Positions 55,655 through 64,000 of a stretch of DNA of 64,000 nucleotides are shown here, in pieces. The stretch comes from Thermodesulfobacteriota bacterium (lineage in GTDB: Bacteria > Desulfobacterota_D > UBA1144 > Nemesobacterales > UBA2774). A program made the translations under genes and the position numbers. Location of the stretch: NCBI GenBank assembly GCA_965216785.1, contig OZ244197.1, positions 1,536,001 to 1,600,000 of the forward strand, read 5' to 3'. The notes under the pieces were generated by a model. The model searched no databases, was not told where the DNA came from, and was given only the letters and a program-made list of their open reading frames with translations. Position 1 is the first letter of the stretch. The number at the start of each line of letters is the position of its first letter.

Positions 55655-56324
55655 TTAATCCTCCTTAGTATCTTCCGGTTCTGTATTTGTCTCAGTGGCT
55701 TCGCTGGACGTTTCCGCGCTCTCAGAGGTTGTAGCTGCAGCCTCTTGTTCGGTCGCTGCGCTAGTCTGGGTCTCTGAAGCGGATTCCTCAGCTGCTGTCT
55801 GGTTGTCCTGGGCGCTCGTGAAAGCGGATGCGGCCTGAGCCTCACCGGGAGAGCTTTCGGATACCGCTACCGACTCAGCACCTTCTTTCTCGCCTTCTTC
55901 GCCAAAGTCCTTAAACACAAATACCTTTCTCTCTACGACTACCTGAGACTTGTCTTCTTCTTTAACTTCCACTTCTCCTGACTGGAGCTTCTCCTCGTAT
56001 ATGTGCTTGCCTTCAATACAGGCTTCAGCGATTTTTGACGTAAAGAGGGCTTCTTCGGCTATAATGCCCTGGGCCTGTTTTTTTGTTCCGACAAAAAGAA
56101 TATCTCCACCGTTGGCTACAACATCTCTTGCATAGTCATATGATCTTTTGAATAGGCCTACAGTCTGTTGAAGATCTATAATATGTATGCCGTTTCTGCT
56201 CCCGAATATGAAGTCTTTCATCTTCGGGTTCCAGTGGCTTATCTGATGTCCGAAATGAACTCCTGCCTCCAGGAGCTGCTTCATACTTATTACATCGCCT
56301 GCTTGCTCGTGTTTCCTGTGCCAT
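55655..56324 (-). pseudogene. rpsB: 30S ribosomal protein S2 with a large in-frame internal deletion and a frameshifted 5' leader (pseudogene or assembly defect)
   Basis: [10 protein letters not shown]...FVGTKKQA joined directly to LFTSKIA; RWLGG, DTN and GNDD motifs absent. The ATG at 56324, which carries the GGAGG RBS, is out of frame with the 56284 ORF. Confidence 0.8.
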
Positions 56325-57557: not shown

Positions 57558-58274
57558 ATGCTAAGATTCATTTATGGCTGGTTTGTTTTTATATTGCTAA
57601 CGACTTTATTTGGCATCTACGGCCTGGTGCTGGCGTTAGTCGCGCCAAATGTCGTTTCGCGCTACGCCGTTAAACCGTGGGCTAGTACTTTATTGTTTTC
57701 TCTAGGTGTGAAGGTCGTTGTTAAGGGATATGAAAATATCCCGCAAGAGCCGTGCGTTTTTATGTATAACCATCAGAGTATCTTCGATGTATTCGCTTAT
57801 ATGTCCGTATTACCCATTGAGTGGAAATCTATTATGAAAAGAAAAGTTGGGAAAATGCCCTTTATCGGCTGGGTTGCCTTAATTTCCGGACATCACGTTG
57901 TATCGAGGGACGGATCGGCCACAGACGCAAACGCGGTTAGGAGAGTAGTACGGAATATTAAAAACGGCCCGTCGGTGGTCGTGGCCCCGGAGGGTACCAG
58001 GAGTCCGGACGGCAAGCTTTTGGATTTTCAGGAAGGCGGGTTCTTGATTGCAATGATGGCTAAGGTCCCGGTTGTTACAATGGTTATAGAGGGGGGGCTT
58101 GAAAGACGCTCCAAGGTCTCAAGGGCTTTTATGCCCGGGACGATGAGAATGACTATATTCCCGAAAATAGACGTCACAAAGCTGCCAAAGGGTAAGGAAG
58201 GCCGTGAAGAGCTTATAAAAATTGTTAAATCACAGATGGAAGGTGTGCTGAATAAAAAAGAAAGAGAGGAGTGA
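57558..58274 (+). CDS. 1-acyl-sn-glycerol-3-phosphate acyltransferase (PlsC-like), copy 1
   Basis: NHQSIFD and PEGTRS motifs. Confidence 0.92.
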   Translation: MLRFIYGWFVFILLTTLFGIYGLVLALVAPNVVSRYAVKPWASTLLFSLGVKVVVKGYENIPQEPCVFMYNHQSIFDVFAYMSVLPIEWKSIMKRKVGKMPFIGWVALISGHHVVSRDGSATDANAVRRVVRNIKNGPSVVVAPEGTRSPDGKLLDFQEGGFLIAMMAKVPVVTMVIEGGLERRSKVSRAFMPGTMRMTIFPKIDVTKLPKGKEGREELIKIVKSQMEGVLNKKEREE

Positions 58275-58407
58275 ACCCTGCTTTAACAAGATGTCATCCC
58301 AAGTGTATGAAGAGGCCCTTTACCTGGTGCTAAAGGGTGATAAGATAAGAGGCTTGCCCGGGCTTGAAGTAAAGTATCTTCAGAATAAATAATATCGGTA
58401 TAACTAT

Positions 58408-59130
58408 ATGTTTAATTTTGTCTACAGCTGGATTGTCATTCTAATTCTAACCGTGATCTTCGGCACATACGGTGTTGTGTTGTCGCTGATCGCTCCTAAT
58501 ATTTTAACAAAGCACGTATTTAGACCGTGGGCTAAAATGATACTTTTCGCAACAGGGGTAAAGGTGGAGGTAAGCGGGTATGAAAATATTCCAAGGGTGC
58601 CTTGTATTTTTATGTACAACCATCAGAGTGTATACGATGTGTTTTCGTATATGTCGGTGCTTCCGGTTGAGTGGAAGGCTATAATGAAAAAGGAAGTCGC
58701 CAGAATACCGTTTATCGGGTGGATTGCTTTACTTTCAGGGCATTATTTGGTTTCGAGGGATGGGTCGGCCAAAGATGCGAATGAAGTTAGAAAGATAGTT
58801 AGAAAGATTAAAAACGGACCGCCCGTGGTGCTGGCTCCTGAGGGTACCAGGAGCCCTGACGGAAAACTGCTGCCCTTTCAGGAAGGCGGGTTTCTGATAG
58901 CTATGATGGCGCAGGTTCCTGTGGTTACTATGGTGATGCAGGGCGGGCTGGAGAGGCGCTCCAAGGTCTCTAGAGCATTTGTGCCCGGAACAATGAAAGT
59001 TACTATATTCCCCCCAATTGATGTAACAAAGCTGCCAAAGGGTAAGGAAGGCCGCGAAGAGCTGATAAGAATTGTGAAGTCGCAGATGGAAGAGGTGCTG
59101 AATAAGGGTGAAAGTAAAGGCACCGTTTAA
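58408..59130 (+). CDS. 1-acyl-sn-glycerol-3-phosphate acyltransferase (PlsC-like), copy 2
   Basis: NHQSVYD and PEGTRS motifs; collinear paralog of copy 1. Confidence 0.92.
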   Translation: MFNFVYSWIVILILTVIFGTYGVVLSLIAPNILTKHVFRPWAKMILFATGVKVEVSGYENIPRVPCIFMYNHQSVYDVFSYMSVLPVEWKAIMKKEVARIPFIGWIALLSGHYLVSRDGSAKDANEVRKIVRKIKNGPPVVLAPEGTRSPDGKLLPFQEGGFLIAMMAQVPVVTMVMQGGLERRSKVSRAFVPGTMKVTIFPPIDVTKLPKGKEGREELIRIVKSQMEEVLNKGESKGTV

Positions 59131-61815: not shown

Positions 61816-62886
61816 CTATCTTAAGGGTTTATAAGACTCAAATTTGCTGTCTTGGCCCCACCCTGTAACTGACTTGTAATTCTTCCAGTCATTTCGCTTA
61901 TTCCCTTCCCATATCCATTCTTGGCTTTTAAGTTTCCAAGTATTGTTGTTAACCATATTTTTCGAAGAAGACTTATCAAACACATATAGCCCCGAGACAT
62001 CGGGGAATTCGGAATCGAATGTATTATTCTCTATTAGATTGTTTTGACTGCCGTAAATCCCGATCAAGGTGTGTTCCCGCTCGTTGGTTTCGGGCATGGA
62101 CTTGGATATGAACGTGTTATTTTTTATTACACTGTTGTAAACCCCGTAATATAGCACTATGCCCCAGGAATTGTTTTCAATTCGATTACCATCAACTACT
62201 GTACTCTCAATATGGTTTTGGCATCCCGCGCTGTTCCACTGAATACCCCTGCCCGGGTGGCGAAGAATGTGGTTCCCGCGTATCACGTTAGCATCAAGAT
62301 TGCCGCCGCACTCAAAATTTGAAAGGTATATCCCGTGGCACTGTTTGGGATTGGGCGCTCCCCCTGTGGTGCATTTGTCCGGGCCAAGGCCGTTTCCTTC
62401 TATGACGTTTTGCTCAATCAGGTTGTAGCCTGCGTTTACGATTGTGATGCCGCTAAGATTATTACTATGAATATTGTTATCTCTTATTATATTTTTGAAC
62501 CCGTAAATCTTTACTCCGTCCCAGCCGTTACGAACCTCAAAGCCTTCGAATATTATATAATCCGCATTTATCTCGACTCTTGGGAATTCATCGGGGGAGT
62601 TTGAGAAATCGAGCACCGGTTTGTGTCCCTGATAAGGTTTTACTGTTATGGGATTTACAGGTGTACCGGATGTCCTGAAGTCAAGCTTGCGGTTATAGGT
62701 GCCGTTCTTTACAAGTATAGTCTGGCCTGGCCGGACATTGGAAACAGCCTCATGTATCGTTCTGTAATCCCCGCCTCCGTTTGGGTCTACAATGGTTGTC
62801 AGTAATGAGCCTTGCGAGGCAGCTTGCTGGGCGTACGTTGATATCGCTGATGTAAAAAATAGCATAATAATAAGGATGATCGGCAT
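61816..62886 (-). CDS. Secreted right-handed parallel beta-helix protein
   Basis: Signal peptide; TIHEAV...PGQTILVKNGTY; repeated NxIxxNxI motifs. Confidence 0.85.
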   Translation of the reverse strand: MPIILIIMLFFTSAISTYAQQAASQGSLLTTIVDPNGGGDYRTIHEAVSNVRPGQTILVKNGTYNRKLDFRTSGTPVNPITVKPYQGHKPVLDFSNSPDEFPRVEINADYIIFEGFEVRNGWDGVKIYGFKNIIRDNNIHSNNLSGITIVNAGYNLIEQNVIEGNGLGPDKCTTGGAPNPKQCHGIYLSNFECGGNLDANVIRGNHILRHPGRGIQWNSAGCQNHIESTVVDGNRIENNSWGIVLYYGVYNSVIKNNTFISKSMPETNEREHTLIGIYGSQNNLIENNTFDSEFPDVSGLYVFDKSSSKNMVNNNTWKLKSQEWIWEGNKRNDWKNYKSVTGWGQDSKFESYKPLR

Positions 62887-62984
62887 GGGTTTAAATATAA
62901 CTGCTATTTACTTTTGTGCGCTAAAGTCCTATTCCCACTACACTTTCAAAAACCAATAGGTATAATAGAACTCTCACCTAGAAC

Positions 62985-63060
62985 GGAGGGCTGGCAGAAC
63001 GGCTAATGCACCGGTCTTGAAAACCTAACTGAGCCCGAAAGTAGCGTTAAAGTCCGAATA
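62985..63060 (+). pseudogene. tRNA-Ser(TGA) fragment: intact 5' 41 nt, decayed 3' part (probable att site)
   Basis: GGAGGGC-TG-GCAGAACGGCTAATGC-A-CCGGT-CTTGAAA-ACC, after which pairing fails; no complementary acceptor strand follows. Confidence 0.85.
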
Positions 63061-63161
63061 ACTCTAGTTAATAAATCGCCTTATTTTACAGTAGTATTCT
63101 AAGTTCTAAGATTAAAATACTGTTTTGCTCTATAACGCTGTTTAACGGACAATATTATCTC

Positions 63162-63185
63162 AATCGCTACCAAAATCGCTACCAA
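63162..63185 (+). repeat. 12-bp tandem direct repeat (arm-type integrase site-like)
   Basis: AATCGCTACCAA AATCGCTACCAA. Confidence 0.75.
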
Positions 63186-63249
63186 TGAGCATTCATGGTA
63201 TCTCTCGCTTATTCTTGTTTAATTATATGTTTTTTGGTATATAAGAATA

Positions 63250-63774
63250 ATGGAACAACTATTCTGGTTAATTCTTGGTTTTGTACTAGCCATTTTATGG
63301 GAAAAATATAAAGAGTGGAAACACTTTAAACATAATTTAATGATGTTATATGAAGAGATAGGAGATGCATTATTAAGTTTAGAGAGAAAATATGATGAAT
63401 TGTCTGGAGAACTTAAAAAAGTAGTTACAGCAGCTCAAGAAGGAGGCATTTCGGAAATAGGAATGGAGAACTTGAGTGGAGAACCGGTTTTTGAATTAAT
63501 GATGCCTATGAACACCTCTGCATGGGAAACATTTCTCGCTAATGGTTATCTGGGTAAATTAGATAATCAAGATGCAGAAGTAGTAAAAGAGGCATATGAT
63601 ACTTTAAAAGGAAGTGATTTTATAAAAGGATTAGTGCCAAGCCTTATAGCAGCATCTATTAGCCCAGCATTTAGTGCTAAGACACGGAATTACATGCTAC
63701 AGACTTCTAGAGTTGCTCCTTTATATCCAGTGACTTTCGCTTTACCAAAATTAAAGAAAGCATCAGAAAACTAG
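63250..63774 (+). CDS. AT-rich hypothetical protein with an N-terminal TM helix
   Basis: 174-aa ORF, markedly more AT-rich than the flanking host genes. Confidence 0.65.
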   Translation: MEQLFWLILGFVLAILWEKYKEWKHFKHNLMMLYEEIGDALLSLERKYDELSGELKKVVTAAQEGGISEIGMENLSGEPVFELMMPMNTSAWETFLANGYLGKLDNQDAEVVKEAYDTLKGSDFIKGLVPSLIAASISPAFSAKTRNYMLQTSRVAPLYPVTFALPKLKKASEN

Positions 63775-63822
63775 AAATTTTAATCAAGAAGGATATGTTC
63801 TCATCTTTTTGGCATTTCTTAT

Positions 63823-63999
63823 CTAATTAAAATTATTCTCGAACAACTCGCCCGCTTCCGGCTCATCTCCCGGATCTCTATCTCTTGGGGGTGGAGGCGC
63901 ACTCTCCCCCGCATTTTCTGATTCTTCTGGTATCTGTTCCACCAGATGCATGAACTGGATTATGGGCTGATTCTGCTCCCGTGGGTCTCGGTAATCTGT
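63823..63999 (-). CDS. 3' end of an unknown ORF entering from the window edge
   Basis: Open frame TDYRDPREQNQPIIQFMHLVEQIPEESENAGESAPPPPRDRDPGDEPEAGELFENNFN*. Confidence 0.5.
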   Translation of the reverse strand, partial: TDYRDPREQNQPIIQFMHLVEQIPEESENAGESAPPPPRDRDPGDEPEAGELFENNFN

Positions 64000-64000
64000 C

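Follow-up and report, generated by a model that had tools for sequence, protein, structure and literature searches.

What has become of a tRNA-Ser(TGA) gene whose front half is intact and whose back half is missing? The half gene lies near the right edge of the window, the 64,000-nucleotide stretch analysed here, which corresponds to C1:1536001-1600000 of a one-contig genome of 3.12 Mb (G000). On re-reading of the letters, all coordinates given in the original prediction proved exact. The tRNA begins with G1 at 62985, its anticodon TGA is at 63018-63020, the anticodon-loop core GGT-CTTGAAA-ACC occupies 63013-63025, and identity to a tRNA stops at 63025. ARAGORN calls no tRNA in the window, the stretch shows no tRNA-like RNA fold (z +0.57), and an Rfam scan of positions 62500-64000 gave four weak matches below the gathering score, tRNA among none of them. 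The 5' half is nonetheless real, far beyond chance: its 43 letters recur without a mismatch (43/43, E 2e-17) at C1:1618857-1618899, at the start of an intact tRNA-Ser(TGA) gene.

An island bounded by a tRNA half and a whole tRNA gene

The two copies of the 43-bp repeat are 19,874 bp apart, which sets the length of the inserted DNA, and the second copy lies beyond the right edge of the window. That copy runs on into the complete tRNA-Ser(TGA) gene (C1:1618859-1618944), the RNA of which folds as a cloverleaf (-38 kcal/mol). An intact tyrosine integrase is co-directional with this gene and its stop codon is 20 bp 5' of it. GC per kb is 0.43-0.47 in the host flank but only 0.36-0.39 over the first 4 kb of inserted DNA, and averages 0.41 over the island versus 0.46 over the genome. 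It is very likely that the half tRNA is the left attachment site (attL) of a 19,874-bp tyrosine-integrase island, which probably recombined at the anticodon loop, and that the full gene at the right site (attR) is probably transcribed from the island. The original prediction had proposed such an integration boundary in the anticodon region, with, as one option, a 5' half supplied at the far end of the element, and had suggested looking downstream for an integrase and a second copy of the core. Both are present 19.9 kb on, the core as part of the intact gene.

Table 1. Coordinates of the island features and of related tRNA genes. Plain numbers refer to the window, C1 to the contig.
Feature	Position	Strand	Basis or remark
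-10 box TATAAT, original host tRNA-Ser promoter, now aimed into the island	62961..62966	+	Context match in G001
attL, the stranded 5' half of tRNA-Ser(TGA), a direct repeat of 43 bp	62983..63025	+	43/43 identity, ARAGORN, empty-site joint, cloverleaf fold of far copy
First kilobase of island interior, continuing past the window to C1:1618856	63026..64000	.	Island GC 0.41
Integrase-distal attachment arm ('ghost 3' half')	63026..63161	+	Aligned to 8 related arms with hardly a gap
Arm-type direct repeat AATCGCTACCAA x2, putative integrase arm-binding sites	63162..63185	+	
Cargo ORF nearest to attL, 174 aa, without a family match	63250..63774	+	3' of stranded host promoter
Promoter-like TTGACT-17-TATAAT (11/12)	C1:1617508-1617536		Before 64-aa ORF and integrase gene
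64-aa ORF	C1:1617547-1617741		Before integrase gene
Intact tyrosine integrase	C1:1617747-1618838	+	PF00589 E 1.7e-36
Predicted embedded promoter GTGACA-17-TATGCT	C1:1618702-1618730		Inside integrase coding sequence
Arm-type repeat counterpart CTACCAAT x2	C1:1618789-1618808		Last codons of integrase gene
tRNA-Pro(CGG), with a further displaced 5' fragment	C1:109803-109880		
tRNA-Leu(CAA), with a further displaced 5' fragment	C1:1330257-1330340		
tRNA-Arg(CCT), with a further displaced 5' fragment	C1:1806935-1807009		

The locus without the island is also found. Two runs (X5 and X6) of one study, which is not that of the source sample, each yield one contig, of 13.4 and 7.1 kb, in which the left flank continues straight into the tRNA. 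The joint skips the 19,874 bp, with no differing letter in 43+83 bases. A genome of the same genus (G001) has the same upstream genes and carries the GGTATAATAGAA promoter context directly before an intact tRNA-Ser(TGA); the genome G008 has the order phosphatase-tRNA-rsmI without an island. The precise empty site and these uninterrupted loci, a comparison that the original prediction had called for, indicate that the host promoter and the front half were left at attL while the complete gene moved to attR. On this model the island would carry a front half of tRNA-Ser(TGA), which on insertion, presumably by its own integrase, would have produced the complete gene at the far end; the host promoter would stay with the useless half, reading into the arm and the first cargo gene.

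It is scarcely credible that the half gene is a plain pseudogene, one of two halves joined at the RNA level, or an assembly artefact. We found no point in favour of any of these. Against a pseudogene or an artefact, the repeat, the integrase and the empty site are all present, and the island and its two junction repeats are tiled by contigs from the source sample; a run from a third study, at low depth, contains short integrase pieces and a junction of core plus arm. The original prediction had offered joining at the RNA level as one option, but the genome holds no free 3' half of tRNA-Ser(TGA) to be joined. A permuted or trans-spliced split tRNA gene was rejected on the same ground, together with the existence of a contiguous copy. 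An SSV1/pTN3-type split-integrase element, in which the attachment site lies within the integrase gene and insertion cuts that gene, was also rejected, since the integrase is whole and stops before the tRNA.

The site of exchange can be narrowed by comparison with islands of the opposite kind. In relatives, 3' fragments of tRNA-Ser(TGA) begin at GGTCTTGAAAACC, the mirror of the end of the 5' fragment. Because the 3' fragments start where the 5' fragments end, the two classes share the anticodon-loop core. The chemistry of lambda-type integrases is well established and, combined with this shared core, puts the predicted crossover within CTTGAAA, the 7-bp loop flanked by the GGT and ACC half-sites.

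The island arrangement recurs at this tRNA gene. A pattern scan of metagenome contigs recovered 11 with the same 5'-fragment junction, and a pattern scan of viral contigs gave 0 matches. Integrase sequence lies directly upstream on the same strand in nine of 47 distinct tRNA-Ser(TGA) loci, a non-random sample that includes our own. No junction of an excised circle occurs among the contigs, the only material searched, which in the source sample are split by the 43-bp repeat. Two junctions (L152:1475-1700 and L148:1501-1629) show the attP-like order of integrase-side arm, 5' half and distal arm, with no integrase match upstream; they are probably tandem island junctions rather than circles. Stacked 3' fragments lie downstream of tRNA-Ser(TGA) in four genomes (G019:C41, G007:C18, G004:C3 and G022:C3), in two of them (G019 and G007) together with an upstream remnant of the 5' type. 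The tRNA-Ser(TGA) gene is a two-sided insertion hotspot.

Where a related integrase gene has a tRNA at its 3' end, the two meet head-on in 35 cases, the conventional geometry in which the back half is rebuilt, and point in the same direction in 17. We call the latter 5'-type by orientation, the displaced fragment having been checked only in G000 and at some tRNA-Ser loci. From this comparison and that of the promoter boxes below, 48 of 99 loci were dropped, having no match to the motif or no complete tRNA inside 330 nt. In a quick tree of 28 full-length integrases, the orientation label changes at least three times and a single clade of 5'-types is rejected (p-AU 6e-5); a 34-row quick tree with outgroups has four changes. 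A search of genome contigs added 45 mostly distant integrases (24-50% identity), few with a tRNA at the integrase end, which were used only as tree outgroups and for L042.

The attachment arm beside the half gene

The original prediction read the sequence after the anticodon loop as the ghost of a tRNA 3' half, with vestiges at the expected spacing: GAAA at 63037-63040 and GTCCGAAT at 63052-63059. We aligned the window with eight related arms, picked for visible similarity (seven of the 11 metagenome junctions and L125). The distal arm has a fixed length, and the blocks AGCGTTAAA, TTATTTTA and TTTAACGC are conserved in the aligned arms. None of the eight has both GAAA and GTCCGAAT, and the closest sister (L150) reads CAAAAG and GTCCAAAT at these positions. 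Because the arm is of fixed length and the motifs are missing in its aligned relatives, the ghost is probably a chance resemblance within an ordinary attachment arm.

A true relic would mean that a complete tRNA-Ser gene formerly occupied the attachment site of the element and that its 3' half has since decayed. Alignment to an allele with a GAAA loop does give the matches CCGAAAG and GT.CGAAT. The best alignment of the window to 13 real 3' halves scores 15, which is reached by 73 of 2000 dinucleotide shuffles (p 0.037) and 109 of 2000 GC-matched genome windows (p 0.055), for a feature chosen after the fact; the sister arm scores 12 in the same test. However, 12 other arms score -4 to 8, where the null mean is 6-7, and the letters conserved across these nearly gap-free arms are not the tRNA-like ones. 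Moreover, compared with the real gene the motifs are shifted away from the anticodon by 4 and 5 nt, not at the expected spacing, and the variable loop of the host tRNA-Ser(TGA) is TTAC, not GAAA. We regard a relic as improbable.

The paired repeat at the end of the arm, by contrast with the ghost, behaves as the original prediction had it. It is found at both ends of the island, and a paired CTACCAA-type repeat stands in the same register in the six related arms that reach that far in full, at a fixed distance, consistent with arm-type repeats. A role for IHF in the arms was considered and is unsupported: the IHF consensus gives only matches with two mismatches, one per arm. Just beyond the repeats, an AT-rich inverted repeat (63209-63250) ends on the start codon of the 174-aa ORF and has a weak, sub-threshold match to RNA-OUT.

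Where the promoter of the rebuilt gene may lie

The gene at attR is the sole Ser-UGA gene among 49 ARAGORN calls in the genome, which is 92% complete by markers. TCA makes up 18.7% of serine codons in long open frames, and isoacceptors with GGA and CGA anticodons cannot read UCA. Since this is the only UCA reader found and TCA is in use, the rebuilt tRNA should be expressed from an island promoter in the integrated state. The search for other Ser-TGA genes had been proposed as a test for a plain pseudogene; only the attR copy was found.

The original prediction had also suggested a genetic switch, in which the tRNA stays silent as long as the island is integrated. The host promoter is indeed 19.9 kb from the complete gene and excision would restore the arrangement. 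A switch of this kind is nevertheless highly improbable, as a complete and correctly folding gene is present at attR while the island is integrated, and the cell has no other Ser-UGA gene that we could find for its TCA codons. The level of the tRNA may still differ between the integrated and excised states.

The most likely promoter is a predicted sigma70-like box within the active-site codons of the integrase, a lead to which we give slightly less than an even chance on the letters of the locus and its relatives. Its -10 box is 134 bp upstream of the tRNA and the whole overlaps the codons S-D-I...R-Y-A. The Ser-Asp-Ile codons would provide the -35 box, and the tyrosine codon plus that for Ala or Thr would provide the -10 box. 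We take this tyrosine to be the catalytic one by the HxxR/LGH/Y motif order known for the integrase family.

A score of 9/12 is in itself weak, being attained by 8.8% of random 200-nt windows. The embedded box scores 9-10/12 in nine of ten members of the lineage (related, so that the counts are not independent) versus one of 35 conventional integrases, and is found at those codons in none of nine other 5'-type loci. In all nine members compared, the codons Ser AGT, Arg AGG and Tyr TAT and the third-position T of the next codon are invariant; the background is three invariant codons of 32 in five long members (Fisher p 0.016 strictly, 0.0025 with Arg). In L027 the -35 box has decayed (8/12), and in L035, judged by eye, the tail is kept without the box.

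In seven relatives the integrase gene is reduced to a C-terminal tail before the tRNA, with unrelated DNA upstream, and the block is kept in all seven aligned, although two of the seven came from a search that required this region. Two remnants begin 7 nt before the embedded -35 box, and in L127 the only aligned piece left is a 47-nt block that holds the box. In remnants of the conventional 3' type, too, the C-terminal end of the integrase is retained, with a tail that begins at codons 220-328 in the eight loci concerned. The best promoter score over 200 nt averages 8.9 in 5'-type loci (n 19) and 8.0 in 3'-type loci (n 35; p 2e-4), a difference of little weight as ten of the 19 belong to one lineage.

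Given the same island, the tRNA could instead be transcribed by read-through from the integrase operon or from a box near the integrase stop codon, the active-site box being an accident of ancestry. This has close to an even chance as well. The promoter-like site before the 64-aa ORF (11/12) is stronger than the embedded box, and no terminator-like site lies on the integrase strand between it and the tRNA. A proximal box, TTGCCC-17-TAACCT, ends 17 nt before the tRNA, nearly the host spacing, and the embedded box is missing from other 5'-type lineages. On the other side, in the seven relatives with truncated integrase genes the integrase promoter is gone, the tRNA persists and the block is kept in every one. 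The TAAC motif near the integrase stop also occurs in conventional elements and is not specific. The motif GTAAC..TGWAAT before the tRNA was dropped as specific evidence for its promoter because conventional 3'-type elements share it.

Extending the active-site box to the lineage, we suggest tentatively, and with slightly less confidence than for the box itself, that these integrases write the promoter of an essential host tRNA into their own active-site codons, and that the wider clade flipped its geometry between front and back rebuilding at least three times, apparently with different promoter solutions. If so, the host could lose the integrase tail only by precise excision, which would explain the integrase stubs before tRNA-Ser across several genera. 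The same stretch of DNA would then encode a recombinase active site and serve as promoter for an essential host gene, giving mobile DNA a built-in protection against deletion. The literature covered, which leaves out most subscription journals and supplements, yielded no tRNA promoter inside an integrase gene. At a separate locus (L099; G045:C184), a co-directional integrase stands directly before a tRNA-Lys/tRNA-Leu pair and a TATAAT overlaps its stop codon; this element would drive two tRNAs.

Known systems, cargo and other tRNA islands

An island that rebuilds its tRNA from the 5' side is an uncommon but known arrangement, and ordinary as an island boundary. In the Islander survey, 5' fragments are counted in 159 of 3,919 islands and anticodon-centred sites in 2,083 (PMC4383910). 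As described in the main text of that survey, the class has a tyrosine integrase, a tRNA and a cognate fragment that are co-oriented and bound the island, the 5' fragment lying upstream of the full gene, and an island length of 2-200 kb. The same holds here, and the attL fragment is intergenic, outside conserved coding regions. The architecture matches the published class in every feature examined, with no difference found. The boundary had been called unusual in the original prediction; it does belong to a minority class, but one already described. The main text of the Islander paper does not contain the word 'promoter' and does not treat the transcription of rebuilt genes (PMC4383910). What the present locus adds is a clean and fully mapped case of this 4% class. 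Its two ends, intact integrase and empty site would allow direct tests, including of where a tRNA gene rebuilt from the 5' side obtains its promoter.

Three other systems share parts of this arrangement, as far as the accessible portions of the respective reports describe them. In dusA-associated integrase islands, the island takes the place of the 5' end of its target and the displaced original marks the outer boundary, as here, and putative -10/-35 boxes stand upstream after integration; their target is a protein gene rather than a tRNA, and the promoter is not placed inside the integrase coding sequence (PMC4482086). Integration of ICEKp1 at tRNA-Asn likewise rewires tRNA and integrase transcription, with promoter switching that depends on the state, but is the mirror case: the host tRNA promoter drives the integrase after 3'-end integration, whereas here island DNA would drive the tRNA (PMC13023037). 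In tRNA-dependent lysogeny, the target is an essential, non-redundant tRNA and the host depends on element DNA, as here; there integration uses a core of ~10 bp and does not restore the gene, which is complemented by a separate phage tRNA (PMC10865867). Our island restores its target at attR through the 43-bp identity and has no further tRNA gene by ARAGORN.

The cargo includes an SRA-HNH nuclease, an AEP-TOTE primase-like protein (807 aa), five IPTL-CTERM proteins, a META protein and a universal stress protein. Virion and conjugation families are absent from the island ORFs scanned (16 with Pfam, seven with PHROGs, short overlapping ORFs left out), and a prophage or ICE was rejected for this reason. 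The island might be a phage satellite (PICI-like) or a mobilizable island: it has an integrase, a small possible regulator and the primase-like gene, and no packaging gene or sign of helper dependence was found. PADLOC gave only weak or primase matches on the island. The SRA-HNH protein near attL (L001:4622-5482) is a likely modification-dependent restriction nuclease by Pfam and a weak PADLOC match. Within the island, at C1 1606806-1607264 (L001:10806-11264), a 49-bp 3' fragment of tRNA-Thr(CGT) carries ~450 bp of arm resembling the tRNA-Thr islands at C1:2.68 Mb. With this fragment and arm inside it, the cargo looks mosaic, having taken in the end of another island.

Elsewhere on the contig, three other tRNA genes (Table 1) have displaced 5' fragments upstream, at distances of 6.2, 8.2 and 18.3 kb, and tRNA-Pro(CGG) is flanked by fragments of both kinds. 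The genome thus has four 5'-fragment cases beside roughly ten 3'-fragment ones, well above the 4% of Islander.

A split integrase is found at tRNA-Leu(TAG) (C1 2010966-2011312 and 2026839-2027837). The frame of its C-terminal part runs through the tRNA gene and that of its N-terminal part, in the same phase, through the copy of the repeat at a distance of 16.7 kb, and it resembles SSV1/pTN3-type integrases. Five other loci (L172, L174, L186, L188 and L192) also have this C-terminal piece behind a tRNA-Leu or tRNA-Asp gene.

Two further observations concern the host part of the window. An ORF on the minus strand (55655-56284), which we take to be rpsB-like and to precede tsf, has an S2 region that seems short (209 aa with a long acidic tail), possibly from an internal deletion or a frameshift. 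On the plus strand, 57558-59130 holds two similar ORFs in tandem, of 238 and 240 aa, which are presumably acyltransferase-like.
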